A stretch of DNA of 64,000 nucleotides from assembly GCA_001795615.1 (NCBI GenBank), contig MGKI01000002.1, positions 2,760 through 66,759 of the forward strand, in the 5' to 3' direction. Shown piece by piece: positions 1,189 to 38,606 of this stretch. Within the stretch, counting starts at the first letter, position 1. Every line of letters starts with the position of its first letter. A model generated the notes under the pieces. The model was not told the DNA's origin. It made no database searches and was given only the letters and a program-made list of their open reading frames with translations. The position numbers and the translations under genes are program-made. The DNA is from Candidatus Yanofskybacteria bacterium RIFCSPLOWO2_01_FULL_42_49 (GTDB taxonomy: Bacteria > Patescibacteriota > Minisyncoccia > 2-02-FULL-40-12 > GWA2-44-9).

Positions 1189-1267
1189 CTATTTAGGTTT
1201 TAGGTTTTAGGTTTTAGGTTTTAGGTTTTTTATTAACCTAATCCCTAATTTCCTAACACCTAATGCT

Positions 1268-1741
1268 CTACTTAATTGTTCCGCCGGCTTTTACTATCTT
1301 ACCCCTCGCCGATTTTGACAAGCTGAATCCTTCAAATACAAGCTTCTTGCTTAACTCACCGTCTCCAAGTATTTTTACTTCTTTGTTTTGCTTACCTAAA
1401 ATTCCTCTGTCAAAAAGAAGTTTCGGGTTAACCGTATCGCCGTCGTTAAATTTATTAAATTCTTCCACATTAACTGCCGCCGGCTTATCCTGCTTCAGTC
1501 TGTAAAATCTGTGTTTTGCATACACGCCGGAACCGCCCGGCTTTTTGGAAGCTCCTCTTTGTTTTGGAAACAACTGCCAGATTCGGTTATCTCCTCCTCG
1601 AAAACCCGGCCTTACGCTGGCGCCAGCTCTTGATTTTTGTCCCTTAGTGCCATGTCCGGAAAAAGTCCCGCGCTTACCGCCGCGACCAATTCGCTTACCA
1701 GATTTTCTAGGAGTTTTCGATTGTAGATTAGATAGGTTCAT
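1268..1741 (-). CDS. rplO: 50S ribosomal protein L15
   Basis: Gly/Arg/Lys-rich N-terminus KRIGRGGKRGTFSGHG typical of L15; position between S5 and secY. Confidence 0.9.
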   Translation of the reverse strand: MNLSNLQSKTPRKSGKRIGRGGKRGTFSGHGTKGQKSRAGASVRPGFRGGDNRIWQLFPKQRGASKKPGGSGVYAKHRFYRLKQDKPAAVNVEEFNKFNDGDTVNPKLLFDRGILGKQNKEVKILGDGELSKKLVFEGFSLSKSARGKIVKAGGTIK

Positions 1742-1817
1742 ATTAATTTAAATTCGAAATGTTTTTAATTTTTGGATTTTGGTCATTTGAGCTTGTTTAG
1801 GATTTAGAGATTAGAAT

Positions 1818-2369
1818 TTAGGATTTCACTCGAAGTTTTTTCAAAGCTTCGAGTGTTGCTTGGGCAATATTAATTTTGTTATTTGTTCTACTGATTAATT
1901 TTCCAGTCAAGCTGGTTATGCCAGCAAGTTTTGCCACTACTCTGACCGGGCCACCGGCTTTAACTCCGCTTTTTGAGGGCTTTAATATAACTTCCGCACT
2001 ATTATATTTTGCCTCAACCTGATACGGAATAGTACCCCCAACTAACGGTATGGCTATTAAATTTTTCTTAGCTTTGTTAAAAGCTTTCTGAATAGACTGG
2101 GCCACATCTTTTCCTTTAGCCATACCAAGACCAATCCTGCCCTTTCCATCTCCTATAGCTATGGTCGTTCTGAAACTAAATCTTTTTCCGCCCTTTGTTA
2201 CCCTGGTAACCCTCGCTATGTCGAGCACTTTTTGTTCATACTCTGATTTTTTATCACCGCCAAAATCACCGCCTTTTTTAAAACCGCCCCTTCTACCTCC
2301 CTGAAAGTTACTACCGCCTCTTGCCTGACCCTGGTTCGGTCCCCTAAAATTGTTATTTTGATTGTTCAT
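1818..2369 (-). CDS. rpsE: 30S ribosomal protein S5 with a Gly/Arg-rich N-terminal extension
   Basis: S5 core (TKGGKRFSF..., VKAGGPVRVVAKLAGI); operon position. Only 76 bp separate it from rplO, so L30 is absent. Confidence 0.9.
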   Translation of the reverse strand: MNNQNNNFRGPNQGQARGGSNFQGGRRGGFKKGGDFGGDKKSEYEQKVLDIARVTRVTKGGKRFSFRTTIAIGDGKGRIGLGMAKGKDVAQSIQKAFNKAKKNLIAIPLVGGTIPYQVEAKYNSAEVILKPSKSGVKAGGPVRVVAKLAGITSLTGKLISRTNNKINIAQATLEALKKLRVKS

Positions 2370-2371
2370 AA

Positions 2372-2803
2372 TTAAAATTTTATTCCGCCTTTTCTTAAAC
2401 CGTCGGCAACGGCTTTTATGCGGCCGTGAAATTTAAACCCCCCTCGGTCAAAAACGGCTTCTTTGATCCCCGACTCTTTAGCCTTTTCAGCAAGCATTTC
2501 ACCTATTTTTGTCGCCTTATCTGTTTTCGTGCCCACGGAGACCCGGCTACCTAGACCCGGCTCCGCACGGGTCCCTCTTGGCGAACGCACGGGTCCCTCT
2601 CCGCGACCAATCTTGCTTTTTTTATCTGCTACAACCTTGCTACTCAAGATAGTTTTGCCTGTTTCATCATCTATAAATTGGGTAAAAATATGCTTATTGC
2701 TTTTAAAAACCGAAATTCTAGGCCGCTCACTAGTGCCCTTAACCAAAGCTCTTACTCGAGAGTGGCGTCTTTGCCTATTTAGTTGTTTTGTTTTAAAATT
2801 CAC
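2372..2803 (-). CDS. rplR: 50S ribosomal protein L18 carrying a ~25-aa GC-rich internal insertion
   Basis: C-terminal FDRGGFKFHGRIKAVADGLRKGG is the L18 signature; operon position. Confidence 0.85.
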   Translation of the reverse strand: MNFKTKQLNRQRRHSRVRALVKGTSERPRISVFKSNKHIFTQFIDDETGKTILSSKVVADKKSKIGRGEGPVRSPRGTRAEPGLGSRVSVGTKTDKATKIGEMLAEKAKESGIKEAVFDRGGFKFHGRIKAVADGLRKGGIKF

Positions 2804-2889
2804 CGAGGGTTTTGGGTTTTAGATTTTAGGTTTTAGGTTTTTATTTTCTTAAACCTAATCACCTAAATACCTAACACCTAGAAGCTATT

Positions 2890-3426
2890 TTATCCCGCTG
2901 CCACTGCTTTCTTACCCGCTTTTTTCTTGATAATTTCATTCTTGTATCTTATGCCGCTGCCCTTATAGGGTTCCGGGGGTCTTTTCGATCTTATTTCAGC
3001 CGCCACCTTGCCAACCAACTCTTTGTCAAGTCCTGATATTTTTATTGAATTTTTTTCTACGCTAAACATAATTCCTTCAACGGCAGAAATAGTTACGGGG
3101 TGAGAGAACCCCAAGCCAAGCTCAAGACCCCCCTCTTTTGCGTTAGCTTTGTAGCCAATGCCCTGAAACTCTAATATTTTATTAAAACCATTTGTAACCC
3201 CAATAACCATATTAGCGATAAGAGCTCTTTGCAAGCCCCATTTGGCTGAATTATCTTCTCCTTTGGGAGAAAGTCTGATTAAATTTCCTTCAATTATAAC
3301 TTCCGATCCTTTTACTAAGGGCTTGGTTAATTCTCCTTTCGGGCCTTTTACAAAAATACTGTCTCCTTCTATCTTTACCGTAACACCGTTTGGAATTTCA
3401 ATTGGTTTTTTGCCGATTTTGGACAA
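2890..3426 (-). CDS. rplF: 50S ribosomal protein L6
   Basis: MSKIGKKPIEIPNGVTVKIEG...; two-domain L6 pattern; operon position. Confidence 0.9.
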   Translation of the reverse strand: MSKIGKKPIEIPNGVTVKIEGDSIFVKGPKGELTKPLVKGSEVIIEGNLIRLSPKGEDNSAKWGLQRALIANMVIGVTNGFNKILEFQGIGYKANAKEGGLELGLGFSHPVTISAVEGIMFSVEKNSIKISGLDKELVGKVAAEIRSKRPPEPYKGSGIRYKNEIIKKKAGKKAVAAG

Positions 3427-3508
3427 ACTAGAATTTAGAATTTAGAATTTAGAATTTAGAATAAGGACTTTGATCCAGATTCTAGCTTCCAGATTCTAGA
3501 TTCTGTTT

Positions 3509-3907
3509 TTACCACACTTCAAACAACATCTCCCCCCCCAGATTCTGTTTCCTTGCTTCTTTTGAACTCATTATTCCTTTAGGAGTTGAGACTACTGCCA
3601 TTCCGTGTCCCGATCTTACCGGTTTTATTTGGCTGGCCTTAATATACATTCTCCTTGATGGGCGACTAATAATCTTGATTCCGCTTACGGCCGGACCATG
3701 TCCGTCATATTTTAATGTAATAAATATCTGTTCATGTTCAGACTTTTTTGTTTTTCTTGTTTTTCTTTCCACTCCAACTAAGTACCCCCCCGCTTTCATG
3801 ATATTAGCTACATCAAATTTCATTCTTGAAAACGGTAAAACAACGGATTCTTTGTTTACCGCTTGAGCATTCATTATTTGTACTAACATATCTGATATGG
3901 GATACAT
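3509..3907 (-). CDS. rpsH: 30S ribosomal protein S8; start probably at the internal M (MYPISDMLVQIMNA)
   Basis: DMLxxIxNA N-terminal motif and a GYLVGVER...HGPAVSGIKIISRP core. Confidence 0.85.
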   Translation of the reverse strand: MYPISDMLVQIMNAQAVNKESVVLPFSRMKFDVANIMKAGGYLVGVERKTRKTKKSEHEQIFITLKYDGHGPAVSGIKIISRPSRRMYIKASQIKPVRSGHGMAVVSTPKGIMSSKEARKQNLGGEMLFEVW

Positions 3908-4047
3908 AAATAATTTAATAATCAATCACCCTGCCTACCGGCAGGCAGGCAATGATCAATAACCAATAAATAATCAATTTCTAAACATTTTAAACATTTA
4001 AAGTTTTATTGGGTATTGGATGTTGGTTATTGGTCATTTCAAATATT

Positions 4048-4233
4048 TTACCAGCTGCTTTTTTTAACTCCTGGCAACAATCCTTGGCTCGCCAACTCTC
4101 TGAAATGAATCCTGCACAATCCAAATTTTCTCATATATCCTCCTTTTCTTCCGCACATAAAGCATCTCAACACCGTGCGCGTAGAAAATTTCGGTTTTTT
4201 GTTTGATCTTGCTATTGTAGACTTCTTAGCCAT
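4048..4233 (-). CDS. rpsZ: 30S ribosomal protein S14, zinc-binding type Z
   Basis: 61 aa with CxxC...CxxC ([23 protein letters not shown]). Confidence 0.9.
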
Positions 4234-4326
4234 GTTTCAAATTTAAAATTTAAAAATCAAAATGAAAAATTACAGTGTAAAATTTTAAAATTTTGAATTG
4301 TCATTTTCCATTTTGATATTTGCATT

Positions 4327-4869
4327 TTACATTTTCTTGATGGGAAATCCCATCAAGCGCAACAATGCCATCCCTTTTTCTTTGTCCATGCTTGTCGTTA
4401 CCACCGTCACTTCCAAGCTGAAAATGTCTTTCAATGTTTCATAGGTAACTTCCGGGAAAACGCTTGACTCCTTCATCCCCAAGTTTAAATTACCGTTCTT
4501 ATCAAAATTTTTTGTATCTATCCCCCTGAAATCTTTGGATCTTGGCAGAGCGATGGATATTAACCTATCTATAAAATCATACATTCTTTTTCCGCGCAAA
4601 GTAACAGACAGGCCAACATTCATCCCTTCTCTTAATTTAAAACTGGATATGGACTTCTTCGCTTTTCTGAACACTGGTTTTTGGCCGGTAAGTTTGGCCA
4701 GATCGGCAACTATTTTTTCTACAGCCTTATCGTCTTTTGTAATTTTGCCTATCCCAACATTAACCACTACCTTCTCGACTTTGGGAACGGCCATTATGTT
4801 TTTAATACTAAACTCTTTCTGCAAAGCAGGAATAATTGATTTTCGATAGTTTTGAATTAATCTAGACAT
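4327..4869 (-). CDS. rplE: 50S ribosomal protein L5
   Basis: L5 motifs (EKVVVNVGIGK, RKAKKSISSFKLREGMNVG); operon position. Confidence 0.9.
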   Translation of the reverse strand: MSRLIQNYRKSIIPALQKEFSIKNIMAVPKVEKVVVNVGIGKITKDDKAVEKIVADLAKLTGQKPVFRKAKKSISSFKLREGMNVGLSVTLRGKRMYDFIDRLISIALPRSKDFRGIDTKNFDKNGNLNLGMKESSVFPEVTYETLKDIFSLEVTVVTTSMDKEKGMALLRLMGFPIKKM

Positions 4870-4886
4870 AAATAAGGCGGGTATTA

Positions 4887-5192
4887 TTATACTTCATTTC
4901 TACATTTTTTACAAATTCTCACTTTGTTATTTCCTTCGAATTTATATCCAACTCTGGTTGGCTTACCACAGGATTTACAGACCAAGGCAACGCTTGATGC
5001 CGAAACAGCTCTTTCTTTGTGTATGACCTGGCCTTTCTGGCCTTGTTTTCTTGCTCGGACATGCTTTTTAATTAAATTGAGTCCTTCAACCACAACCCTG
5101 TCTTTTTGTGGCAAAATCAAAATCACCTTAGCTTTTTTGCCCCGGTCTTTGCCGCTTAACATTATTACATTGTCATTTCGTTTTATCTTCAA
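4887..5192 (-). CDS. rplX: 50S ribosomal protein L24 with a C-terminal zinc-ribbon extension
   Basis: KOW region (KIKRNDNVIMLSGKDRGKKAKV) followed by CKSCGK...CKKCRNEV. Confidence 0.85.
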   Translation of the reverse strand: MKIKRNDNVIMLSGKDRGKKAKVILILPQKDRVVVEGLNLIKKHVRARKQGQKGQVIHKERAVSASSVALVCKSCGKPTRVGYKFEGNNKVRICKKCRNEV

Positions 5193-5263
5193 AACTAGTT
5201 TCTAGTTTCTAGTTTCTAGTTTACAGATTGCTGTCAACTGTAAACTGTCAACTGTAAACCGTC

Positions 5264-5629
5264 TTACACTACTTCCTCTGCCAACGATGCTATGGTATTA
5301 AATCCTTTCTCTTTTATTTCTCTCGGTATCGGGCCGAATATTCTCCCGCCTTTCGGTTCCATGCCATCCAATATCACAACTGCGTTGTCGTCAAATCTGA
5401 TGTATGTACCGTCTTTCCTTCTGAAGGGTTTCCTTTGTCTGACAACAACCGCCCGCAATACTTCTTTTTTCTTTACCGTCTTTCTCGGTTCAGCAACTTT
5501 TACCGAAACAACAACCATATCTCCTATCTGAGCATATCGCCTTTTAGATCCTCCGAGTACCTTAAAGACGCCAACCTTTTTCGCTCCGCTGTTATCTGCT
5601 ACTTCTACTATTGAACGTAATTGCAACAT
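5264..5629 (-). CDS. rplN: 50S ribosomal protein L14; start at the internal MLQLRS
   Basis: [22 protein letters not shown] is the canonical L14 N-terminus. Confidence 0.9.
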
Positions 5630-5795
5630 AATAAAATAATCTCTAAATCCTAAACACCTGCCTGCCGGCAGGCAGGAATCCAAAATTCTCAGCCTGAGGC
5701 TGATCCGCCTCTGGCGGAAAATATTTAAACTGTTTTTGATTTTGATATTTGGTCATTTGATATTGTTTAGAAATTAGATATTAGAAATTAGAAAT

Positions 5796-6050
5796 TTAAT
5801 CAACTCTGTTGATTATTGTCCATCTTTTGTCTTTCGACACCGGCTTTGTTTCTTTTATCAAAACTTTTTCGCCTATTTTATAAACGCCCTCCGCATCATG
5901 TGCCTTGAATCTTTTAGACACACTATAGTATTTTTTGTATTTTGGATGCTTTTTCATCCGCGAAACTTCAACAACTACAGTTTTCTGCATTTTATCAGAC
6001 ACCACAACGCCTTTTAATATTCTCTGTTTTGAATTTTGAATTTTAGTCAT
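5796..6050 (-). CDS. rpsQ: 30S ribosomal protein S17
   Basis: GVVVSDKMQKTVVVEV...KYKKYY...KAHDAEGVYKIGEKV. Confidence 0.9.
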   Translation of the reverse strand: MTKIQNSKQRILKGVVVSDKMQKTVVVEVSRMKKHPKYKKYYSVSKRFKAHDAEGVYKIGEKVLIKETKPVSKDKRWTIINRVD

Positions 6051-6060
6051 TGTTTAAAGT

Positions 6061-6270
6061 TTAAAGTTTAGGGTTTAGGGTTTGCGAATTTTGACTTTTC
6101 AATAAAGTCAAAATTCGTGCTATGTCTTTTTTTATTTTCTTAATTTGACTTGTATCCTTCAGGGCATGAGCTTCTAATTCGAAACTGATTTTGGCTAGTT
6201 TAATTTTCAGGTCGCTTAAAGACCCTTCTAACTCTTTCGATGTTTTATTTTTTAAGTCAGTTGATTTCAT
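6061..6270 (-). CDS. rpmC: 50S ribosomal protein L29
   Basis: 69-aa helical protein between L16 and S17 (LKNKTSKELEGSLSDLKIKL). Confidence 0.8.
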   Translation of the reverse strand: MKSTDLKNKTSKELEGSLSDLKIKLAKISFELEAHALKDTSQIKKIKKDIARILTLLKSQNSQTLNPKL

Positions 6271-6671
6271 CTTTTAACTATCCTCACTTTAATTGGTAAT
6301 TTATGCGCAGCCAGCCTTAATGCTTCTCTGGCCTGTTCTTCCGATAAACCGTCAATCTCAAATATCATTCTTCCCGCTTCTACTGGTACTACAAAATGAG
6401 AGAGGGCACCTCTGCCACCGCCCATTCCAACTTCAGAACTTTTGGATGTTCTCGGTTTGTCTGGAAAAACTCTTGTCCATATTTTACCCCCTCTTTGGAT
6501 AAATCTAGCCATAACTTTGCGGGCAGACTCAAGCTGGTTCGATTTCAACCAAGACGATTCTTCGGATTTAAGGCCGAATGTACCAAAACTTAACTCAGCG
6601 CCACGAGATGTGCGATTTTTCAATTTGCCCTTGTGGACTTTAGTGTGTTTTACGCGACTAGGCTGTAACAT
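6267..6671 (-). CDS. rplP: 50S ribosomal protein L16
   Basis: MLQPSRVKHTKVHKGKLKN...; GGGKG...; operon position. Confidence 0.9.
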   Translation of the reverse strand: MLQPSRVKHTKVHKGKLKNRTSRGAELSFGTFGLKSEESSWLKSNQLESARKVMARFIQRGGKIWTRVFPDKPRTSKSSEVGMGGGRGALSHFVVPVEAGRMIFEIDGLSEEQAREALRLAAHKLPIKVRIVKR

Positions 6672-6720
6672 AACTAAGTTTAAATATTTAAATATTTAAA
6701 TATTGTCATATTGAAGTTTT

Positions 6721-7359
6721 TCATTTTTGAAAAACTTCTCCCTTATATATCCATACTTTCACTCCGATTGTTCCGTATGTTGTCATGGCAGTTGCCTTTG
6801 CAAAGTCGATGTCGGCCCTGATAGTCTGAAGGGGTAAACTGCCTTGTTCAAGATGCTCTAGTCTTGCAATCTCAGCACCGTCTAAGCGGCCGCTTATTTG
6901 CATTTTAACTCCAGCCACATCTTTGTTCGCTATTATCTTCGCTACAGTTTGCTTCATGACTCTTCTGAATGGTATCCTCTTCTCGATTTGATCGACTACG
7001 GACTCAGCCATTATGGCAGCCGAGGCTTCTGGATTTTTTACTTCTTGAATTTCTACCCTAATACCGACTTTTTTCTTAAGAAGCTGCCGGACTGCTGATT
7101 TTAACTCTTCCACTCCAGTACCGCCTCTGCCAATTATTAAACCGGGCCTTGCCGTATATATTAAAATGTTGAGCATGTCTGTCCCTCTTTCAAGTTCAAT
7201 TCTGTCAACCGCAGTATTTTTTAATCGTTTGCTAAGAAAGTCCCTCACCGCAACATCATTTTTTAAATACTCCACATATTTTCTACGACCAAACCATCGG
7301 GACAACCAGTCCTTATTTATTCCTATTCGATATGATGTTGGTGATATTTTTTGTCCCAA
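6721..7359 (-). CDS. rpsC: 30S ribosomal protein S3
   Basis: MGQKISPTSYRIGI...; KH domain; ...RIPFRRVMKQ. Confidence 0.9.
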   Translation of the reverse strand: MGQKISPTSYRIGINKDWLSRWFGRRKYVEYLKNDVAVRDFLSKRLKNTAVDRIELERGTDMLNILIYTARPGLIIGRGGTGVEELKSAVRQLLKKKVGIRVEIQEVKNPEASAAIMAESVVDQIEKRIPFRRVMKQTVAKIIANKDVAGVKMQISGRLDGAEIARLEHLEQGSLPLQTIRADIDFAKATAMTTYGTIGVKVWIYKGEVFQK

Positions 7360-7436
7360 ACTGGTTAGTTTTTAGTTTCTAGTTTTTAGTTTCTAGTTTT
7401 AAAGCTAGAAACTAGTCGCTAGAAGCTAGAAACTAG

Positions 7437-7946
7437 TTATATGGCTTTTCTTCTGAACACTCTCTTGCCCAAACTCTTTAAAACATTTTCTTTTCGACCC
7501 AATTCTGTTTTAATTTCCGGCCTTTTTACTTCTTGTTTGTCAGATTCCGATGTTTGTCCGAATTCCTTTTCCTTGACCCTCTTTTCAATCGGCGATCTCT
7601 TTAAACCAGCTACCCTCTCCGCTAAAATTACTTCTATGTGGCTCGTTTTCTTTTCTATTGGGGAAACCCTTCCAAAACCTTTCGGCTTGAACCTCTTCAG
7701 CTTAACACCTTCGTCAACCTTTATACTTTTAACATACAGGTTATCTTTTACCATGTTGTAGGTGTTTTCTGCATTAGCTATGGCCGATTTTAATAACTTT
7801 ATAACAGGCGAGCTCGGACGCTTAATCATAGCCTCAAGTTGACTAATGGCATCAAGCGCATTTTTTCCTTTTATCAGATTCGAAACAGCTCTAACCTTTC
7901 TTGGAGCCAATCGTAGGTTATTCAGTTGTGCTTTTACTTCTGCCAT
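7437..7946 (-). CDS. rplV: 50S ribosomal protein L22 with a ~50-aa basic C-terminal extension
   Basis: AKAQLNNLRLAPRKVRAVSNLIKGKNALDAISQL... Confidence 0.85.
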   Translation of the reverse strand: MAEVKAQLNNLRLAPRKVRAVSNLIKGKNALDAISQLEAMIKRPSSPVIKLLKSAIANAENTYNMVKDNLYVKSIKVDEGVKLKRFKPKGFGRVSPIEKKTSHIEVILAERVAGLKRSPIEKRVKEKEFGQTSESDKQEVKRPEIKTELGRKENVLKSLGKRVFRRKAI

Positions 7947-8019
7947 TTTTAGGTTTTAGATTTTAGGTTTTAGATTTTAGGTTTTTTACCTAATTACCTA
8001 ACACCTATCACCTAATAAG

Positions 8020-8373
8020 CTATTTCTTCGGTGCTTCTCCTTCCGCTGGTGCTACTTTTGCTGCTTGCGCCGCTTCTATTTCTTTCTGCTTTTGGGCCGC
8101 TTCCAATTCTTTCTGCATTCTCCCTCCGTGTCTCACAAATTTTCTAGTCGGAGAAAATTCTCCAAGTTTATGGCCAACCAAATCCTCTGTAATAAAAACT
8201 GGAATGTGTACTCTACCATTATGAACGCCAAACGTAAAACCGATCATCTCTGGAATAATCGTACAGGCTCTTGACCATGTTTTAATTATTATTTTGTCGC
8301 CCGCCCTTAAACTGGCTATTTTTTTTAACAGCCTTTGATCGACATATGGTCCCTTTTTAAGTGATCGTGACAA
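8020..8373 (-). CDS. rpsS: 30S ribosomal protein S19 with a repetitive (QKELEAAQ...) C-terminal tail
   Basis: [11 protein letters not shown]..., [26 protein letters not shown]. Confidence 0.9.
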
Positions 8374-8439
8374 ATTAGTTTCTAGTTTCTAGTTTCTAGC
8401 TTACAGATTCTATCAACTGTAAACTGTAAACAGTAAACT

Positions 8440-9264
8440 CTATTTAGTTCTCCTTCTAACAATGAATTTATTTGATTTCTTCTTCTTGTTTCTGGTTTTT
8501 CTTCCTCCCGTAATTTTCCCTTGAGCCGTTTTCGGCCTTTTTGTCCCGCGTCCTTGCCTTCCCTCTCCTCCTCCATAAGGATGGTCTACTGGGTTCATAA
8601 CAGTGCCTCTTACTTTTGGTCTTCTGCCCAGCCACCTTGTTCTTCCGGCTTTGCCTAAAACAACCGAACTATGCTCCATATTGGACAACTGTCCCAATGA
8701 CGCGTAGCTTTCACCTGATATCGTTCTGGTTTCCGATGATGGCATTATTAATTGAACATGGCCACCTTCGCTGGCAAGCACTGTTGCCGCTCCGCCGGCT
8801 GATCTTATTAGCCTACCGCCTTGCCCGGGCCTGAGTTCAACATTATGAACCATAGAGCCCTGCGGAATATTTTTTAATTTCATCCTGTTGCCCGGCCGAA
8901 GCGGCGCTTTTTCAGCCGTAATCACATCATCCCCAACCTTAATATCTTGCGGAGCAAGAATGTATCTTTTGTCTCCGTCAGCGTAGTTTATTCGGGCTAT
9001 TCTGGTAGTTCTATTCGGATCGTATTCTATCGAAAAAATCTTACCGGGAATATTCAACTTGTTCTGTTTAAAATCAATCTCTCTATACAGCCTCTTAGCA
9101 CCGCCGCCTCTGTACTTGCTGGTGATTCTGCCCTTATTGTTTCTTCCCCATGACCTTATTAATCCTTTGGTGGCCGACCTTAACGGACCGACCTTTGATA
9201 GTCCGCTAAAATCATATCCCTTCATGTGCCTCCTTGACGGAGTTGTTGGTGAATAACTTTTCAT
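8440..9264 (-). CDS. rplB: 50S ribosomal protein L2
   Basis: ...GGGAKRLYR..., HPYGGGEGR... are classic L2 motifs. Confidence 0.95.
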   Translation of the reverse strand: MKSYSPTTPSRRHMKGYDFSGLSKVGPLRSATKGLIRSWGRNNKGRITSKYRGGGAKRLYREIDFKQNKLNIPGKIFSIEYDPNRTTRIARINYADGDKRYILAPQDIKVGDDVITAEKAPLRPGNRMKLKNIPQGSMVHNVELRPGQGGRLIRSAGGAATVLASEGGHVQLIMPSSETRTISGESYASLGQLSNMEHSSVVLGKAGRTRWLGRRPKVRGTVMNPVDHPYGGGEGRQGRGTKRPKTAQGKITGGRKTRNKKKKSNKFIVRRRTK

Positions 9265-9429
9265 AAACTTTAACCTTTAAAACACAAGGCACAGGAACCA
9301 AATCACAAATGTTTTGGTCTCTGTGTTTTTCTTAAGTTTATGTTTTATTTGTGTTTTGTGCATTTGTGTTTTGTGTTTTTTAATTTGGGGTTTATTTAGA
9401 AATTAGTAATTAGAAATTAGAAATTCTCG

Positions 9430-10474: not shown

Positions 10475-10600
10475 AAAAATTTCTAATACCTAATATCTAA
10501 TTTCTAATAAAATTTCCAATTTCTCAATGTCTAATGTCTTAACTTTTTAGAATTTAACATTTGGCATTTCATTAGAAATTAGGAATTAGTAATTAGGAAT

Positions 10601-11146
10601 TCACTCTTGTGATTGTATAATCACAATCGATTTCTTATTCCCCGGCACTGCTCCTTTAACTGCAATCAGATTATTTTCTACATCTATTTTAACCACCTTT
10701 AAACCTCGCGTAGTTGCTTTCACTCCACCCATTCGTCCAGCCATTCTCATACCTTTCAATGTATGCTGGGGAAATCTTTGACCGATTGAACCGGCATGCC
10801 TAAGCACATGGTGATGGCCGTGGCTGAAAGGCATTCCGGAAAAACCATGTCTTTTTACTACGCCCTGAAATCCCTTGCCCTTAGATACTCCGCTGACTTT
10901 AACAATGTCTCCTTCGGAAAAAATTGAAACGGTCAGCTTGTCCCCGACATTTTGTTGTTGATTAATTTTAGTCTCTCTTTTCTTTTTTCCTACGGACACC
11001 TGAACTGCTTCATAGCCATCTTTTTCTTTGGTTTTAACCTGGGTTACAGTATTCGGTTCAACCTCAATAACGGTAACAGGTATTACAGCGCCATCCTCGC
11101 TGAATATCTGGCTCATTCCTAATTTTCGTCCAATTATGAATTTCAT
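10601..11146 (-). CDS. rplC: 50S ribosomal protein L3
   Basis: ...KGKGFQGVVKRHGFSG... is an L3 motif. Confidence 0.9.
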   Translation of the reverse strand: MKFIIGRKLGMSQIFSEDGAVIPVTVIEVEPNTVTQVKTKEKDGYEAVQVSVGKKKRETKINQQQNVGDKLTVSIFSEGDIVKVSGVSKGKGFQGVVKRHGFSGMPFSHGHHHVLRHAGSIGQRFPQHTLKGMRMAGRMGGVKATTRGLKVVKIDVENNLIAVKGAVPGNKKSIVIIQSQE

Positions 11147-11528
11147 GTGGCTACCGCTGAATTAACGCTGATTATTACGCTGATTTATCGCTGACCTATT
11201 TCGGCGCCATATCAGCGCTCCTATCAGCGACATATCGACGGTTATTTCCAACAAAAAACCCAGTTCTAGCTGGATCTAACCATAAACTAAAACTTTGTAT
11301 TGCTAACTATGCGGTTTTATTTGGGGTTAAAACCACTTTTATTTGATTTGAGATATTAACACAACAATGTACTTTTACAAACCCGTTCTTTTAACCTTTC
11401 TTCGGGATAAGTTCTAATGTTGTATTACTACCTTATCTCTTGCCACCTTCGCCTTCGCCGGCTGGCGAATGGCAAATCTGATGACAAGGGGAAGGGAATA
11501 ATTATTTATGCTGCACTTTAAGGAAATC

Positions 11529-11855
11529 TCACATTTTAACCTCTATATCGACCCCGGATGGTAAATTAAGATTCATCAATGCGTCGATTATTTTAGGTGT
11601 TGGCGAAGTTATATCGATTACCCTTTTGTGCGTTCTCATCTCAAATTGTTCACGGGAAGTTTTGTCTATAAAGGTAGACCTGTTAACCGTGTATTTGTGT
11701 ATCTCTGTAGGCAACGGCACAGGGCCCACCGGCTTGCCGCCGTATCTTTCAATAGTATCAACAATCTGCTGAGCAGACTTGTCTATAATCTTATTATCGT
11801 AAGCCCGCAGTTTTATTCTTATTTTCTGTTGATTTTCCGTCGTTTTTTTTGCCAT
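11529..11855 (-). CDS. rpsJ: 30S ribosomal protein S10
   Basis: [14 protein letters not shown]...GPVPLPT...[20 protein letters not shown]. Confidence 0.9.
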
Positions 11856-11953
11856 TTTCTTAGTAAAGAACTAGATATAACACTAACCTACAAATCCTTA
11901 CGAATGCTACGAATAATTATTTGTGGTATTCGCATGTCATTCGTAGATTTGTG

Positions 11954-13156
11954 TTACATTGTAACCTTCGTTACCACTCCCGCTCCGACCGTTTTGCCGC
12001 CTTCTCTGATGGCAAACCTCTGCTTTTCTTCCATGGCAATAGGAGCAATAAGTTTAACTTTCAAATTAACAGTGTCACCCGGCATGACCATTTCCGCTCC
12101 TTCCGGCAACATGACCTCGCCTGTAACATCCGTAGTTCGGAAATAGAATTGCGGTTTATAGCCCTTGAAAAACGGGGTATGCCTTCCGCCCTCTTCCTTA
12201 GTCAAAACATAAATCTCCGTCTCAAATTCAGTGTGGGGAGTTATCGATCCTGGCTTGGCTAAAACTTGGCCTCGCTCTACATCTTCCTTTTTGGTACCTC
12301 TCAAAAGAACACCGGCATTATCTCCAGCTAAACCTTCGTCGAGCTGTTTGTTAAACATCTCAATTCCAGTAATAACGGTTTTTGATGTCGGTTTCAGTCC
12401 TACGATTTCAACCTCTTCGTTGACTTTTGCTTTGCCTCGTTCGATTCTACCGGTAACAACAGTTCCCCTGCCTTCAATAGAGAAAATATCTTCAATCGGC
12501 ATAAGAAATGGCTTATCAGTTTCGCGAACCGGATCGGCAAAATATGTATCAAGAGCATCAAGTAATTCTTTTATCGGTTTGGCGGCGGGATCGTCTTTTG
12601 ACTTCGCCTCAAGTGCTTTCAGCCCGGAACCTCTTATGATGGGGGTTTTTTCTCCGTCATATTGATACTTGCTCAAAAGCTCTCTTATTTCAGCTTCAAC
12701 CAGTTCAAGCATTTCGGTATCGTCAACTTGGTCGACTTTGTTTAAAAATACGATTAAGGAGGGCAGACCAACCTGTCTTGCTAATAGAATATGCTCTCTT
12801 GTTTGAGGCATTGGACCATCGGTAGCAGCAACAACCAACACGGCACCATCCATTTGAGCTGCGCCGGTTATCATGTTTTTGATGTAATCCTGGTGGCCTG
12901 GAGCATCAACATGAGCATAATGGCGCTTAGGGGTTTCGTATTCAGAATGGTGGAGAGAAATGGTGATTCCTCTTGCTTTTTCTTCCGGAGCGTTATCAAT
13001 TTGATCAACCGCCTCAACACGGGCGCTGTATCCATCATCTTTATACAAATTAGCTGTATGCAAAATCGCCGCTGTTAAAGTGGTTTTTCCGTGGTCAACG
13101 TGACCGATTGTGCCGACATTCATGTGCGGCTTTGATCTTTCAAATTTTCCTGCCAT
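11954..13156 (-). CDS. tuf: Elongation factor Tu
   Basis: [31 protein letters not shown]-motifs; 400 aa. Confidence 0.95.
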
Positions 13157-13275
13157 TGTTTCACAACTTACAACCTACAACTTACAATCTACAACTTTTT
13201 GTTGCTGATTGTTGATTGTGGATTGTTGGTTAAAATGTGTATTGTCGTGTAAGTCCTATTTTATACGAATAACTG

Positions 13276-13686
13276 CTATCCGTCAACAACTGTGGATTTC
13301 TCTTCCTTGTCTATTTCGTTCTTTAGCGCCAATATTTCTCTGTTTATTTTTTCTAAAAGCTCCGCTTCTTTCTCGCTTATGCGGTATTGGAATTTTCCAG
13401 AAACATCAACCGGGGAACTGGCCGGAAAAATGGGTTTTTGAATTCCGGGATCATCCGCCGATAAGTTTAGGGGCTGGCCGTTATTAATACTAGGAGAAAC
13501 GCCGACTTGAACAGGGTGATTAATCTTTATTTCTTTCTCCTGATCTGAGATAAGATTTTTATAAGAATCATAACCAAGTACCACAAACGACGGCTCGCCG
13601 TTATCCAAAATTAAAACTGCGGTGGAACCTTTCAGTAGTTTTTTTAGTTCATCAGTATTCAAATTAACATTTGAACAACTAAACAA
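13276..13686 (-). CDS. Hypothetical 136-aa protein between fusA and tuf; the N-terminal part faintly resembles a Phd/YefM-like fold.
   Basis: Intact ORF with the neighbours' codon usage. AVLILDNGEPSFVVLGYDSYKNL resembles antitoxin N-domains; no partner toxin is visible. Confidence 0.4.
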   Translation of the reverse strand: MFSCSNVNLNTDELKKLLKGSTAVLILDNGEPSFVVLGYDSYKNLISDQEKEIKINHPVQVGVSPSINNGQPLNLSADDPGIQKPIFPASSPVDVSGKFQYRISEKEAELLEKINREILALKNEIDKEEKSTVVDG

Positions 13687-13756
13687 ATTAACAAATAAAC
13701 AAGGATGTAAAATCGCCGGCCTGGCTAATTGCTAAATTGTTTAATTGTTAAGTTGA

Positions 13757-15880
13757 TCACTTCTTCCCTTCTTTAATGAGCTCCGCAATATTATTCGGTA
13801 CTGGCTCATAATGGTCAAACTCCATATTAAATGTCCCTCTGCCTTCGGTCAAGGACCTCAAAGATGTCGCATATCCGAACATTTCTGACAACGGAACCCG
13901 CGAATCAACAACTTTAAGATTCAAGGGGCTCCTGTCGTTTATGCTCAAAATCTGGCCACGCCTTGAGGCCAAGTCACCCGTAACTTCTCCCATAAAATTG
14001 TCGGGCATTATAATCTCAACTTTCATTATCGGTTCCAGCAATATGGCTTTGGCTCTCCTGGCAGCTTCTCCAAGAGCGGTTGATGATGCAATTTTGAAAG
14101 CAATTTCTGACGAGTCAACATCGTGGTACGAACCGTCATACAAAGTAACCTTCATATCAACCATCGGGAAACCGGCAACGACTCCTTTGTCCAAGGCTTC
14201 TCTAACGCCTTTCTCGCAAGGGTTGATAAATTCTTCCGGTATGGCTCCCCCTCTGATAGCATTAACAAATTCAAAGCCGGAGCTTCTGTCTTTCGGCTCT
14301 ACTCTTAACCATACATGGCCGTACTGGCCGCGGCCTCCCGACTGACGAATATATTTCCCTTCCGCTTCTGCGGTACCGGTAATTGTTTCTTTGTAAGCAA
14401 CCTGGGGACGGCCGACGCTTACCCCCACGCCAAATTCTCTTTTCAGTCGGTCGACAATTATTTCAAGGTGCAGCTCGCCCATTCCGGAAATAATTGTTTC
14501 GGCAGTCTCCTCATCGGTTTTAATCCTAAAAGTAGGATCTTCGTCTGAAAGCTTCCTTAATGCCAGGCTCATTTTTTCCTGGTCGGCTTTTGTTTTTGGT
14601 TCAACCCTCAGAGATATGACCGGCTCAGGGACTTCTATGCCCTCCAAAACTGCCGGGTTATCAGGATCGCAAAGCGTATCTCCCGTTTTCGTGTCTTTCA
14701 AGCCAACCGTTGCGGCGATATTGCCGGCATATATTTCTTTGATCTCTTCTCTTTGGTTGGCGTGAAGCCGAACAATACGGCTTATCCTTTCCTGTTGTCC
14801 GCTTCTGGTGTTAAGAACATAGGAACCGGATGCCAGTTTTCCAGAATAAACCCTAAAAAAAGTAAGAGAACCGACAAACGGGTCAGTTGCGGTTTTAAAC
14901 GCCAACGCGGTAAACGGAGCATTTTCGTCAGCTGAAACCAGTTTTGTCTGGCCAGTTTTTGAGTCCACGCTGCTGGTCGGAGGTATGTCTATCGGGGAAG
15001 GCAAGTAATAAGCAACGGCATCAAGCACAAGCTGAACACCTTTATTTTTCAAAGCAGAACCGCACAAAACAGGGAAAATTTTATTTTCTATAGTTGCTTT
15101 TCTTAATATCTCCCTCAACTTGTCCAGGCCGACTTCTTTTCCTTCAAGGTAATCAGACATTGCTTTATCATCCTGCTCAACTATTTTTTCAATGGCAACC
15201 GCTCTTTCTTTTTCAGCTTCTTGTTTTAGGTGTTCCGGTATTGCGCTTTTTACCACCTTCTCCCCTCTTTCGCCCTCAAAGGTTATGTATTCCATCGTAA
15301 GCAAATCGACAATGCCCTTGAATTGATCTTCATGTCCATCGGGTATCTGTAGTTTCACGGCAAACGGAGAAAGACGACCGAGGATTGATTGGAAAGATCG
15401 TTCGAAAGAAGCACCCAGCCGGTCAAGCTTGTTAATAAAACAAATCCTCGGCACCTGATAGTCATCGGCATACCGCCAGTTTGTTTCTGACTGGGGCTCT
15501 ACTCCGGCCACACCATCAAAGACCACAACAGCCCCGTCCAAAACACGCAAAGAGCGCTTGACCTCAATCGTAAAATCAATGTGTCCGGGGGTGTCGATAA
15601 TGTTGAGTTTGTACTTATTATCTGTCTGCTGATGGCTGATGACTGATGGCTGATGGCTAGTGGGGGTCCAATAAGCGGTAGTAGCTGCCGCGGTTATGGT
15701 TATCCCTCTCTCCCTTTCTTGTTCCATCCAGTCCATTATGGTATCTCCTTCATGGACCTCCCCTATCTTGTGGGAAATACCGGTATAAAAAAGAACCCTC
15801 TCTGAGGTCGTGGTCTTGCCGGCATCAATATGAGCAATGACGCCGAAGTTACGAATTTTATTTATTGGATAATCGGCCAA
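13757..15880 (-). CDS. fusA: Elongation factor G
   Basis: AHIDAGKTTTSERV, DTPGHIDF and the five-domain EF-G layout; it carries a small repeat insertion in the G domain. Confidence 0.95.
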   Translation of the reverse strand: MADYPINKIRNFGVIAHIDAGKTTTSERVLFYTGISHKIGEVHEGDTIMDWMEQERERGITITAAATTAYWTPTSHQPSVISHQQTDNKYKLNIIDTPGHIDFTIEVKRSLRVLDGAVVVFDGVAGVEPQSETNWRYADDYQVPRICFINKLDRLGASFERSFQSILGRLSPFAVKLQIPDGHEDQFKGIVDLLTMEYITFEGERGEKVVKSAIPEHLKQEAEKERAVAIEKIVEQDDKAMSDYLEGKEVGLDKLREILRKATIENKIFPVLCGSALKNKGVQLVLDAVAYYLPSPIDIPPTSSVDSKTGQTKLVSADENAPFTALAFKTATDPFVGSLTFFRVYSGKLASGSYVLNTRSGQQERISRIVRLHANQREEIKEIYAGNIAATVGLKDTKTGDTLCDPDNPAVLEGIEVPEPVISLRVEPKTKADQEKMSLALRKLSDEDPTFRIKTDEETAETIISGMGELHLEIIVDRLKREFGVGVSVGRPQVAYKETITGTAEAEGKYIRQSGGRGQYGHVWLRVEPKDRSSGFEFVNAIRGGAIPEEFINPCEKGVREALDKGVVAGFPMVDMKVTLYDGSYHDVDSSEIAFKIASSTALGEAARRAKAILLEPIMKVEIIMPDNFMGEVTGDLASRRGQILSINDRSPLNLKVVDSRVPLSEMFGYATSLRSLTEGRGTFNMEFDHYEPVPNNIAELIKEGKK

Positions 15881-15959
15881 AACTAGGTTTTAGGTTTTAG
15901 GTTTTAGGTTTTAGGTCCTCAACTAACACCTATTACCTAAGACCTAACACCTGATTTTC

Positions 15960-16427
15960 TTACCACGAAAAATGAGCAAATGCCTTATTTGCCTCTGCCA
16001 TTCTTTGTACATCTTGTCTCTTTTTAACCGCACCACCGGTATTATTGGAAGCATTGGCAAACTCTTCGGCTAATTTTACCGCCATTGATTTGCCTTTTTG
16101 AGATCTGGCTGAATCAACTATCCACCTAATCGCCAAAGCCGTTCTTCTTTCCGGCCTGACTTCGACTGGCACCTGATAATTGGCTCCGCCCACTCTCTTT
16201 GATCTTAGCTCAACGGACGGATAAACGTTGCCCATTGCCTTTTCAAATACTTCCATGGCTGGTTTTTTGGTCTGTTTTTCAAGAATATCTAAGGCTGAAT
16301 AAACAATCCTCCTTGCAATCGGTTTTTTACCTTCCTGCATTATTTTGTTAATAAATTTGGAAATTAAAACATTAGAATACTTGGTATCCGGTTCAGTTGC
16401 CGCTCGTTTTTTTATTAGTCTACGCAA
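15960..16427 (-). CDS. rpsG: 30S ribosomal protein S7
   Basis: ...QEGKKPIARRIVYSA..., ANYQVPVEVRPERR. Confidence 0.9.
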   Translation of the reverse strand: MRRLIKKRAATEPDTKYSNVLISKFINKIMQEGKKPIARRIVYSALDILEKQTKKPAMEVFEKAMGNVYPSVELRSKRVGGANYQVPVEVRPERRTALAIRWIVDSARSQKGKSMAVKLAEEFANASNNTGGAVKKRQDVQRMAEANKAFAHFSW

Positions 16428-16492
16428 TTAAGTATTGAGTATTTGGTATTAAGTATTAAGTATACTGGATACATAATACTGAATACATAATA

Positions 16493-16903
16493 CTATTTCG
16501 GTCTCTTGGCTCCATATTTTGACCTCTGTTGCATCCTTCCTTCTACTCCTGTGCTGTCTAATACTCCCCTTACTATATGATATCTTACTCCGGGTAAATC
16601 TTTAACCCTTCCTCCTCTGATAACAACGACGGAGTGTTCCTGAAGATTGTGTCCTATGCCAGGAATATATGCGGTTACTTCCATACCGTTGGTTAATCTG
16701 ACACGGGCGAATTTACGCAAAGCAGAGTTCGGCTTCTTGGGAGTCATCGTACCGACCCTTATCGCAACTCCTCTTTTAAAAGGGGCCGAATAGTGTGCCG
16801 GTTTATTCTTTAAAACATTAAATCCGCGAGCCAAAGCCGGCGACTTGGTTTTCGCTTTTGCTATTTTACGAGGTTTTTTTAATAACTGGCGAAATGTTGG
16901 CAA
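16493..16903 (-). CDS. rpsL: 30S ribosomal protein S12
   Basis: [13 protein letters not shown]...[16 protein letters not shown]...VRYHIVRG. Confidence 0.95.
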
Positions 16904-17053
16904 GCTTCACTCGCACCCACAACCTACAACTTACAACTTACAACAAAACTGTCGTTGGTCATTGGTCATTGGTTATTGGTCAATAAAATAAGACCCCCTA
17001 AGGTCTTGAGAAGTATATCAGCCCTTAAGCATTTGTGTCAATCTGGACGTTTG

Positions 17054-17794
17054 CTAGAATCCTATCCCTGTTAATAAGCGAAACATCCATCCTATCAATG
17101 GCATCAATAATGGAAAGACGAAGAAGAGAAAAAACAAAAGCAACAAGAATCCGTATTTGTATAAAAACACTTTTATCGCTGCGAATTTAAGCGGCAGGAA
17201 TGTCAGCAAAAGCCAGTGGCCGTCTAAGGGCGGTACCGGGAAGAGGTTAAATATCGCAAGAAAAAGATTTAATGTTACTACGACGCTTAACAACTCTGGA
17301 ACAAGAGATGAAGAAAAAACATCCGGCAAAAATCTCAGCGTAAGACCGAACAATACCGCCAAAGCGATGTTGGATGCCGGTCCAGCGAGAGCGACCTTGG
17401 CCGGGCCGTATTTTCTGTCACGCAAATTTTCGGGATTATACGGAACCGGTTTGGCATACCCGAATATAAAGCCCCCGAGCATAAAGGAAATGAGGGGAAG
17501 AAAAACAGAACCAAACATATCCAGATGTTTAATCGGATTCAGTGTCAATCGGCCAAGATTCTTTGCCGTAGGATCGCCCAAAGAATAGGCCACCGCTCCG
17601 TGGCTTACCTCGTGTATTACAACAGAATACAAAAGCGCTATTATCCAGAAAATGGCAGTTAATGTGGATTCCATGCTAATGCTTGAAATAATAGCAAGGA
17701 TGAGATATACTAGCAAGACAAATCTGAAACAGAATAACTCAATATACAATAACCAACATCCAATCAAGTTATAAAAACTCTTACAGGTTTTCAA
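17054..17794 (-). CDS. Site-2 protease / peptidase M50 family membrane metalloprotease; the true start is probably downstream of the first ATG.
   Basis: HEVSHG (HExxH) in a TM helix and a LNPIKHLD motif; multi-TM. Confidence 0.7.
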   Translation of the reverse strand: MKTCKSFYNLIGCWLLYIELFCFRFVLLVYLILAIISSISMESTLTAIFWIIALLYSVVIHEVSHGAVAYSLGDPTAKNLGRLTLNPIKHLDMFGSVFLPLISFMLGGFIFGYAKPVPYNPENLRDRKYGPAKVALAGPASNIALAVLFGLTLRFLPDVFSSSLVPELLSVVVTLNLFLAIFNLFPVPPLDGHWLLLTFLPLKFAAIKVFLYKYGFLLLLFFLFFVFPLLMPLIGWMFRLLTGIGF

Positions 17795-17872
17795 ATAAAG
17801 GTTTCCAAATATTTAAAGAGTTGATTATTTATTGGTGATTGATTATTGGTTATTGATGATTTATTAACCCAC

Positions 17873-22737: not shown

Positions 22738-22885
22738 AACTGCCTCTTGTTAAAGGACATCTTGCTTTGTAATACCATAAATTTTAAAAAATAAAAGCCG
22801 GGTAGTAGATTTTTGAGATATGCCTTGGACATAAAGCCAAAAGCAACTCAAAAATTCACTACCCGGAAAAGCCCGATTGGGCCTT

Positions 22886-25065: not shown

Positions 25066-25098
25066 ATTAAAAAAGAGCGCTGAAAACTCTTTTTTAAT

Positions 25099-30916: not shown

Positions 30917-30970
30917 CTAGGTGTTAGGTGTTAGGTGTTAGGTGTTAGAGATGTTTCTAAAACCTAGAAG

Positions 30971-38171: not shown

Positions 38172-38189
38172 AGGCTAGGTTTTAGGTTA

Positions 38190-38555: not shown

Positions 38556-38606
38556 AATCTTTCTCTCCTAGTCCCCTCCTAAAACCTAACACCTAAAATC
38601 TAAAAC

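Follow-up and report, generated by a model that had tools for sequence, protein, structure and literature searches.

Among the long simple-sequence repeats of prokaryotes, those with a 7-nt unit form the most abundant class in most genomes, and polymerase slippage was proposed for them in 2007 (Mrazek et al. 2007, as summarised in PMC4679880 and PMC4692102). Here we describe heptanucleotide-repeat elements in a 64,000-nt stretch of contig MGKI01000002.1 (the window, meaning the whole stretch that was analysed) from a groundwater bacterium of the candidate phyla radiation (CPR), Candidatus Yanofskybacteria (Parcubacteria) from Rifle. Its S3 protein (6721-7359, minus strand) shows 100% identity to the S3 of Candidatus Yanofskybacteria bacterium RIFCSPLOWO2_01_FULL_42_49. 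Most long gaps of its str/S10/spc ribosomal-protein operon hold two convergent tandem arrays that pair into a hairpin. As in the described heptanucleotide repeats, the window units are 7 nt long, tandem, mostly intergenic, over-represented and attributable to slippage; head-to-tail units of 5-11 nt run beyond chance length, with period 7 in excess. The described repeats are single arrays scattered genome-wide, whereas those of the window are mostly complementary convergent pairs, belong to many families and saturate one operon. In addition, unit-length polymorphism between strains was directly seen in the window.

Convergent pairs have been described before. In Xanthomonas, 70-75 sites of GGGAATC consist of two convergent arrays with the capacity to fold into stem-loops (Rehm et al. 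2015, PMC4692102), and array length in Xanthomonas and Nostoc differs among related species while the repeat type is retained (PMC4692102). The Xanthomonas GGGAATC and Nostoc GGGGAYT arrays resemble those of the window as intergenic heptamer arrays of typically about 4 units (PMC4692102), and convergent pairs on opposite strands were found in the window as well. In contrast, Xanthomonas and Nostoc use a single G-rich unit that is read as a G-quadruplex former, while the window units are diverse, AT-rich, G-poor and without G-tracts; no GGGNATC or GGGGAYT unit is present in the Tandem Repeats Finder (TRF) table of the window.

Direct repeats of TAACTGA are known from marine Beggiatoaceae, cyanobacteria and Bacteroidetes (MacGregor 2015, PMC4679880). 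In Beggiatoaceae they end a few nt from start codons, including those of ribosomal-protein operons, and Shine-Dalgarno (SD) sites are rare (PMC4679880). The window shares with this system heptamers (2-6 copies in TAACTGA) that end a few nt from starts, a location at internal ribosomal junctions (fusA, L3 and S4 for TAACTGA), the scarcity of SD sites, and arrays that overlap the ends of open reading frames (ORFs) or lie in frame inside them. The TAACTGA system, however, has one unit, for which an inverted partner is a rare exception (one 'indirect repeat'), while the window has many units, in pairs. TAACTGA arrays are absent from the window, where two matches at 2 mismatches were found, neither of them an array.

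The short tandemly repeated repetitive (STRR) heptamers, reportedly described by Mazel et al. in 1990, are said to be tandem, intergenic and limited to three specific units in heterocystous cyanobacteria. The unit TTGGTCA at 16951-16982 presumably coincides with that of STRR2. Tandem intergenic heptamers are thus common to both, but STRR units are fixed in heterocystous cyanobacteria while the window carries other units in a CPR bacterium. The kind of element is already known, since heptanucleotide long simple-sequence repeats, Xanthomonas convergent pairs and Beggiatoaceae arrays have been published (PMC4692102, PMC4679880). An earlier note on this DNA had been aware of no description of the feature; that the feature is undescribed is incorrect for the kind (Xanthomonas, Nostoc, Beggiatoa). 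As to the form, our literature searches yielded neither a report from CPR bacteria nor one of multi-family hairpins that saturate an operon. The saturation of a CPR operon is a new form of a known repeat type.

The ribosomal-protein operon is the most conserved and compact operon of bacteria, and its spacers are normally tiny. Of the 25 junctions of the window operon, 20 are long (49-382 nt), and the other five, which measure -20 to 17 nt, are compact and empty. In about 17 of the 20 long gaps, two convergent tandem arrays form a hairpin with periodic arms. By our own classification, such hairpins occupy 17 of 20 long operon gaps against 5 of the 22 other co-directional gaps of the window (Fisher p = 6e-5). 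The array unit is mostly 7 nt and at some gaps 8, 11, 14 or 16 nt, the period being 8 at 13687-13756 and 6672-6720, 11-12 at 11147-11240 and 8/16 at 40696-40790. Counting arrays of at least 3 copies with at most 1 mismatch, we found 18 of period 7 in the window, against one of period 6, two of period 8 and none of periods 9-15. The earlier note had stated that nearly every gap of the operon is a heptamer run followed by its inverted run, and that the same plan recurs elsewhere. All the array positions it gave hold the repeats described, as judged by TRF, including those outside the operon at 29416, 30917, 39323 and 40696, of which the last has period 8/16 and that at 30917 folds weakly. The general statement is borne out by about 17 of the 20 long gaps, and fails at the five compact and empty junctions, at the S5-L15 gap without a hairpin, and where the period is 8, 11-12 or 16. 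The operon and its elements, followed by the elements of other gaps, are as follows (TRF arrays are of period 7/14 unless stated; z, folding z-score).

1-16903 (-): str/S10/spc operon, S12-S7-fusA-orf136-tuf-S10-L3-L4-L23-L2-S19-L22-S3-L16-L29-S17-L14-L24-L5-S14-S8-L6-L18-S5-L15-secY; an L30 gene was not found between S5 and L15
1190-1267 (-): L15-secY gap; 5' arm TTAGG plus N2-3, x4; 3' arm (ACCTAAA)x5, perfect, ending 2 nt before the GTG start; RNA z -5.5, DNA z -5.7; TRF 1192-1229
1742-1817 (-): S5-L15 gap; G-poor arrays, complementary arm absent, no hairpin; z 0.3
2804-2889 (-): L6-L18 gap; hairpin of the ACCTAAA family, one 7-nt unit shorter in strain L090; z -3.9; TRF 2808-2841
3427-3508 (-): S8-L6 gap; arms (TAGAATC-like)x4 and (TTCTAAA)x5, the array continuing into the TTG start; z -5.3; TRF 3429-3462/3477-3504
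3908-4047 (-): S14-S8 gap; AATAACCAA/TTATTGG hairpin with an inserted GC palindrome CCTGCCTGCCGGTAGGCAGG; z -3.2
4234-4326 (-): L5-S14 gap; AT-rich period-7 hairpin, with a 25-nt apex replacement in strain L005; z -3.8
5193-5263 (-): L14-L24 gap; arms TTTACAG/TTGACAG and (CTAGAAA)x4, TTG start, near-copy of 8374-8439; z -2.9; TRF 5195-5222/5231-5263
5633-5795 (-): S17-L14 gap; composite of, in this order, (ATTTCTA)n, CAAATGACCAAA, GC palindromes and (TTTAGRA)n; related elements at 48870-49041, 1742-1817 and 63046-63093; z -5.8
6052-6083 (-): L29 end and S17 start; single arrays AACCCTA and AACTTTA, encoding the last 7 L29 residues and adjoining the S17 ATG
6672-6720 (-): S3-L16 gap; small period-8 (TTTAAATA) hairpin; z -3.2
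7360-7436 (-): L22-S3 gap; arms CTAGTTT-type and (ACTAGAAACTAAAA)x2.5, TTG start; z -4.9; TRF 7365-7400/7405-7436
7947-8019 (-): S19-L22 gap; ACCTAAA-family hairpin; z -5.3; TRF 7947-7985/7988-8016
8374-8439 (-): L2-S19 gap; copy of the 5193-5263 element, TTG start; z -2.3; TRF 8376-8399/8415-8439
9265-9429 (-): L23-L2 gap; (ATTTCTA)n array and AACACAA/TTGTGTT hairpin
10475-10600 (-): L3-L4 gap; long hairpin, arms ATTNCTA and TTAGAAA; z -6.3; TRF 10478-10509/10571-10601
11147-11240 (-): 3' end of the S10-L3 spacer; period-11/12 'CAGCG' hairpin adjoining the L3 ATG
13157-13235 (-): upstream of tuf; hairpin, arms ACAATCN and AAGTTGT; z -3.3; TRF 13163-13195/13202-13228
13687-13756 (-): fusA-orf136 gap; period-8 hairpin; z -2.9
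15881-15959 (-): S7-fusA gap; ACCTAAA-family hairpin, 3' arm perfect x4.7, TTG start; z -5.8; TRF 15884-15916/15923-15952
16428-16492 (-): S12-S7 gap; hairpin, arms TATTATG and ATACTTA, TTG start; z -3.9; TRF 16427-16463/16469-16493
16904-16990 (-): S12 5' leader; hairpin, arms TGACCAA and AAGTTGT, downstream of the best promoter match (17041-17012); TRF 16919-16944/16951-16982
29416-29495 (-): ftsA-ftsZ gap; hairpin, arms CCACTAG and (CTAGTCGCTAGGCA)x2.5; TRF 29417-29451/29458-29488
30917-30990 (-): ybeY-ftsA gap; weak hairpin, arms TTTTAGG/TTTTAGC and (AACACCT)x4.4; TRF 30918-30948/30957-30983
39323-39387 (-): hisS-HIT gap; ACCTAAA-family hairpin; TRF 39326-39358/39368-39383
40696-40790 (-): lepB-hisS gap; period-8/16 hairpin; TRF 40707-40736/40752-40789, period 8/16

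Sense-strand RNA of the gaps folds into long hairpins with interruptions, whose z-scores relative to dinucleotide-shuffled sequences are -2.3 to -6.3, the observed energy being reached by none of 100 shuffles in most gaps; with DNA energy parameters, z was -2.4 to -5.7. Except for the S5-L15 gap, the gaps thus beat the shuffled controls. The stems are 'beaded', consisting of blocks of 5-6 Watson-Crick pairs with one 1x1 or 2x2 (sometimes 2x3) internal loop per unit. When arms were swapped among 17 gaps, the mean pairing energy was -23.8 kcal/mol for cognate 5' and 3' arms and -10.5 kcal/mol (standard deviation 8.6) for non-cognate ones, strong off-diagonal values being confined to shared repeat families; at 5193-5263 and 8374-8439 the complementarity is only 5-of-7. 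The arms are therefore complementary beyond AT-rich chance, which answers the refuting condition that the earlier note had set. The window sequence recurs at 99.9-100% identity in 10 independent contigs from other samples, except for the divergent end of one of them (L005), which excludes an assembly artefact. Although the gaps are AT-rich, the reading that they represent chance low-complexity DNA or such an artefact is refuted by the shuffles, the arm swap, the 18 period-7 arrays against 0-2 at neighbouring periods and the 10 independent assemblies, and we assign it a practically nil probability. On balance, we lean towards the explanation that the gaps hold self-complementary heptanucleotide-repeat elements of DNA-level origin, which inflated ancestrally compact junctions of 1-25 nt and were tolerated because the inserts fold on themselves.

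The elements are copied between junctions within one genome. Near-identical copies with sharp ends lie at unrelated junctions (5193-5263 and 8374-8439), and a related genome, L087, carries three TCCATAA elements of about 62 nt with sharp ends. The claim that each gap has a different unit was overstated, since strong non-cognate pairing groups the gaps into families: several units are present in the window, but about three multi-copy families recur, with near-identical copies at different junctions. The ACCTAAA/TTAGGNN family occupies at least 6 gaps (1190, 2804, 7947, 15881, 30917 and 39323), the ACAACTT family two (13157 and 16904), and the ATTTCTA...CAAATGACC family four; the unit CTAGAAA recurs in 3 gaps, and its family, as grouped by the arm swap, takes in those at 5193, 7360, 8374 and 29416. 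In the degenerate arm of the ACCTAAA family, the 5-nt TTAGG cores are kept while the spacers of 2-3 nt vary. Most window hairpins have the repeat unit alone in common, their loops and flanks being different. Arms contain about 3-5.5 units; a copy-number 'ruler' of 5 units was considered and set aside as suggestive only, the counts falling from 3 copies with a shoulder at 4-5 and 4 of 128 arrays exceeding 6 units.

Two further repeats were noted beside these elements. A 20-nt G+C-rich palindrome, CCTGCCTGC(C/T)GG(C/T)AGGCAGG, interrupts AT-rich repeat elements at three places (3930-3960, 5655-5685 and 48920-48950) and resembles an independent dispersed element of small size. A family of non-periodic hairpins, ACAAATCTACGAAT...ATTCGTAGATTTGT, is located at 11856-11953, 29600-29677 and 28000-28060; it seems to be conserved at the tuf-S10 junction of the related genome L091, judging by equal length and an equal top heptamer.

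The junctions of the window were compared with those of four other Yanofskybacteria, L087, L088, L089 and L091, whose S3 identities to the window are 83%, 85%, 73% and 83%, respectively. At most junctions the gaps are 1-23 nt in L089 and 1-38 nt in L088, while the orthologous gaps of the window, L087 and L091 are 50-340 nt. The inflated junctions differ among these genomes: the L18-S5 gap measures 58 nt in L087 and 98 nt in L091 but 2 nt in the window, and the L15-secY gap is 78 nt in the window, 10 nt in L087 and 124 nt in L091. The L2-S19 gap is inflated in both the window and L087, but with different units, CTAGAAA and TCCATAA. The differing units and junctions among sister species therefore mark the hairpins as recent and lineage-specific additions to an ancestrally compact operon, acquired independently at different junctions. 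The supposed conservation of the architecture over changing sequence is not borne out, since sister species inflate different junctions or keep compact gaps of 1-25 nt.

Both the origin of the elements and their changes take place in DNA, as in simple-sequence repeats prone to slippage. In a strain pair 99.93% identical over 17.3 kb, the sole indel is one 7-nt unit (window 2841, array 2804-2889; L090 shorter), a single event of whole-unit length polymorphism between close strains. In about 100 kb of pairwise strain alignment, the sole other indel event is the 25-nt apex replacement in the 4234-4326 hairpin of L005, which created AATCAGA x2. Substitution rates between strains are equal in gaps and coding sequence (3.4e-4 each) and are therefore uninformative. 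The elements also invade coding sequence where the reading frame permits, as perfect or near-perfect in-frame 7- or 8-nt arrays that add short peptide loops to three genes; that of fusA extends a variable EF-G loop by 6 residues beyond its length in relatives.

15628-15658 (-): fusA coding array, in-frame (CCATCAG)x4.4
42535-42564 (+): pth (peptidyl-tRNA hydrolase) coding array, perfect in-frame (CTGGAAA)x4.3
31174-31204: ybeY coding array, in-frame 8-mer

The strain indel, the independent gains, the coding arrays and the near-identical copies together argue for DNA-level growth by whole repeat units and for copying from site to site, in agreement with the generative mechanism that the earlier note had preferred to inherited motifs. 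Among the matches listed, 80 S3 loci from diverse genomes, with at most 52% identity to the window S3, were sampled for breadth. The period-7 layout of stop codon, hairpin and start codon was also found in other CPR groups (loci labelled Saccharibacteria, Taylorbacteria, Zambryskiibacteria and UBA2135) and in Acidobacteriota, and one single array ahead of a start codon in a Chloroflexales locus, while no period-7 array was found in about 40 Firmicutes loci.

Two parts of the operon were observed in all five Yanofskybacteria. The S10-L3 spacer (window 11147-11528) is long, 276-827 nt, even in the otherwise compact operons; it has no Rfam match and may contain an undescribed leader or a small gene. 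A small unannotated gene between fusA and tuf, orf136 (13276-13686, minus strand), is present at the orthologous position in the window and L087-L091, its sole match being a weak Phd/YefM-like one (E = 4e-4) below the cut-off.

For the inflation of compact junctions by such elements, slippage would grow the arrays, and the inverted partner would persist because a self-folding insert keeps the upstream stop and the downstream start next to each other where the stem begins. An operon with almost no SD sites, in which initiation is probably coupled or dependent on A-rich leaders, could tolerate such an insert. Several points weigh against this explanation. Slippage accounts for growth and not for the opposing complementary array nor for the preference for 7. 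Hairpins also lie ahead of the first operon gene, S12, and of tuf, so that coupling to an upstream ribosome is not the whole story. The degenerate arm with kept cores and variable spacers has the appearance of being selected for pairing, which is not expected under strict neutrality. As for polarity, the asymmetry of arm perfection by lag-7 identity in RNAfold-defined arms (18 vs 16) and that of a G-poor 3' arm (23 vs 14) are not significant, and gene and replication directions are confounded in these tests.

The same features bear on a second explanation, a selected cis-acting RNA whose stems would be cut by RNase III like the intervening sequences (IVSs) of rRNA, shield the ends of mRNAs, or serve to couple or insulate translation by masking an A-rich leader until an upstream ribosome melts the stem. 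The feet of the stems are located 0-12 nt past the stop codon and 0-17 nt ahead of the start codon in many taxa. Near-perfect arrays are more often start-proximal than stop-proximal (36 vs 16 in three independent groups, p = 0.008), and the start-proximal arrays are A-rich and G-poor (10-17% G). Together with the kept TTAGG cores, this bias suggests a constraint in the gene direction. Enrichment of the elements in translation operons, here and in Beggiatoaceae (PMC4679880), and the resemblance of the ORF-bearing form described below to an rRNA IVS stem point the same way. In contrast, the sense strand has no folding advantage, being the better one in 8 gaps and the antisense strand in 14; most sense folds contain 0-2 G-U pairs per hairpin, almost all pairing being Watson-Crick; and no compensatory changes were seen by eye among copies within families. 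The position of the stem feet is no evidence of function, because it follows trivially from insertion into a spacer of at most 25 nt. Close relatives thrive with gaps of 1-25 nt, and arrays of the same type occur within coding genes. The selected RNA function put forward in the earlier note is thus not supported by these tests, and we judge it unlikely. Under the insertion explanation that we prefer, the transcript stems would probably act as intercistronic structures, either IVS-like substrates of RNase III or protectors of mRNA ends, and not as terminators. A G-poor start-proximal arm was rejected as a universal rule on the same 23 vs 14; it holds in the window (8 vs 2) and in the PF05635 cassettes described below.

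Translation signals were examined in parallel. SD motifs precede 4 of 26 operon genes and 8 of 39 other window genes, AGGAGG-type sites being present at some window genes, rarely, and none was seen by eye before the operon start codons of the compact relative L089. Since SD sites are rare in the window overall and none was seen in L089, ribosome-binding sites were not displaced by the hairpins, and replacement of SD sites by hairpins is ruled out. The window operon has 8 TTG starts against one in L089, and seven N-termini of its TTG-start genes were checked by eye, among them MSRSLKKGP of S19. Against reading TTG starts as specific to the hairpins, TTG is equally frequent in the remaining ORF calls of the window (11 of 39), although first-start calling inflates this figure.

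Stem-loops between genes, a few of them followed by TTTT (for example CTAGTTTTG), could also be intrinsic terminators or attenuators subdividing the operon, as the earlier note had considered. A terminator scan flagged none of the hairpins, its 24 matches (18.3 expected by chance) all being elsewhere, and no hairpin combines a G+C-rich stem with a T-run behind it. The stems have interruptions and are AU-rich, they lie inside an essential operon and adjoin start codons, and the window has genuine G+C-rich terminators at other places (25066-25098 and 56732-56777). That the hairpins act as terminators or attenuators is accordingly highly improbable. At the gathering score, Rfam detected only tRNAs in the window and no match for the hairpins, ribosomal-protein leaders included. 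A CRISPR array was rejected, as the units are contiguous and 7 nt long instead of identical repeats of at least 23 nt with unique spacers.

At one site of the window, between S21 and yqeY, the arms enclose a gene instead of forming a simple hairpin.

38172-38614 (-): S21-yqeY interval; ACCTAAA-family arms 38578-38614 and 38176-38210 around the PF05635/TIGR02436 gene 38190-38555

The two arms pair at -39.6 kcal/mol (z -4.7). The 121-residue product of the gene belongs to PF05635 ('23S rRNA intervening sequence protein', bAvd-like; 128.6 bits, cut-off 33.8) and TIGR02436 ('four helix bundle protein'; 123.4 bits, cut-off 24), and is homologous to PDB 2GSC, the Xanthomonas campestris protein XCC0516 (E = 3.5e-24). 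In the supplementary table of Rehm et al., GGGAATC array #15 is listed between bccP (XCC0517) and XCC0516, overlapping the annotated XCC0516 start (PMC4692102); one array of the Xanthomonas system thus lies directly ahead of a homologue of the window protein. Arm pairs of the same kind as those of the operon gaps enclose PF05635 genes in many lineages. A scan of metagenome contigs with the window protein gave 80 loci (L095-L174) with 47-71% identity, of which 71 had usable flanks. Of the 71 loci, 34 have period-7 arrays of at least 3 copies at no more than 100 nt from the gene (22 upstream, 24 downstream, 12 both), against 0-1 loci for periods 5, 6 and 9 and 2-6 loci for period 8. Flank complementarity reached z < -2 in 44 loci and z < -3 in 28; the 15 loci with both an array and z < -3 range from 31% to 61% G+C, with a different unit at each locus. 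Per flank, arrays accompany 46 of 142 flanks of PF05635 genes, compared with 14 of 173 flanks of the remaining genes at these loci (odds ratio 5.4, p = 5e-8). G exceeds C in 20 of 21 upstream arms, while C exceeds G in 21 of 24 downstream arms, and in several loci the downstream arm was seen by eye to adjoin a host gene's start codon, as in the window. No paper connecting the PF05635/TIGR02436 family with heptamer arrays was found in the literature. A CRISPR-association screen includes '23S rRNA IVP' among array-associated proteins, which might, as a speculation, reflect the heptamer arrays around the gene.

The arrangement resembles the 23S rRNA IVS with a PF05635 ORF in the extended stem of inverted flanks around the gene. 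The rRNA IVS, however, lies in an rRNA helix and is excised by RNase III, while the PF05635 loci here are in rRNA genes in none of the 40 cases tested, the host in the window being an mRNA operon. The loci are also similar to repetitive extragenic palindromes (REPs) with their associated tyrosine transposases (RAYTs), in that a genome-specific repeat flanks its associated gene; unlike RAYTs, PF05635 is not a known transposase. Of 17 distal arrays, located more than 150 nt from the PF05635 gene, 8 match the flanking unit (at most 1 mismatch). This match, the higher array rate beside PF05635 genes, the genome-specific families and the near-identical sharp-bounded copies at unrelated junctions are in agreement with a further explanation, in which the hairpins are non-autonomous mobile elements, like MITEs (miniature transposable elements with inverted repeats) or REP doublets (REPINs), moved or copied by a protein, possibly PF05635 or an unseen transposase, with slippage secondary. 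MITE or REP-REPIN features within the 64 kb consist of 2-3 near-identical sharp-ended copies, with no duplication or RAYT visible. Against this explanation, inspection by eye revealed neither target-site duplications nor conserved termini, the window contains no transposase, PF05635 has no known catalytic activity, and most window hairpins share the unit and not the loops or flanks. We consider this explanation quite unlikely. A wider proposal, tentative and to be held with little confidence, is that the hairpins are ORF-less members of a widespread unrecognised element class, in the ORF-bearing form of which the PF05635/TIGR02436 protein would recognise, stabilise or propagate the 7-nt arrays, by analogy with RAYTs and REPs.

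Other repeats of the window were also noted. A palindrome family with the core CCCCTCACCTTTTGA...TCAAAAGGTGAGGGG is present at 43800-43870 and 53080-53110, and a different palindrome at 22760-22830 is similarly placed downstream of a gene. A near-perfect giant inverted repeat of 369 nt lies between divergent genes at 55811-56179 (minimum free energy about -134 to -139 kcal/mol, z -9 to -13). An element at 61093-61454 is bounded by CCCCCACACTTAT...ATAAGTGTGGGGG inverted repeats and contains a small ORF, by eye GIY-YIG nuclease-like.

Self-pairing repeats can thus enlarge the junctions of the most conserved and compact bacterial operon about ten-fold. The 8 TTG-start genes and the near absence of SD sites in the inflated operon constrain models of translation initiation and coupling in CPR bacteria. 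Hairpin-forming heptanucleotide repeats are extended to CPR groups and Acidobacteriota, adding to a 7-nt excess noted since 2007. The PF05635 association is the finding most worth following up, as it offers a testable handle on that excess: an Avd-like gene lies between arrays far more often than its neighbours do, in loci of 31-61% G+C, and one such gene is the Xanthomonas gene with a solved product structure. If the proposal of a common element class is true, it would explain both the heptanucleotide excess of prokaryotes and the role of the '23S rRNA intervening-sequence proteins'.

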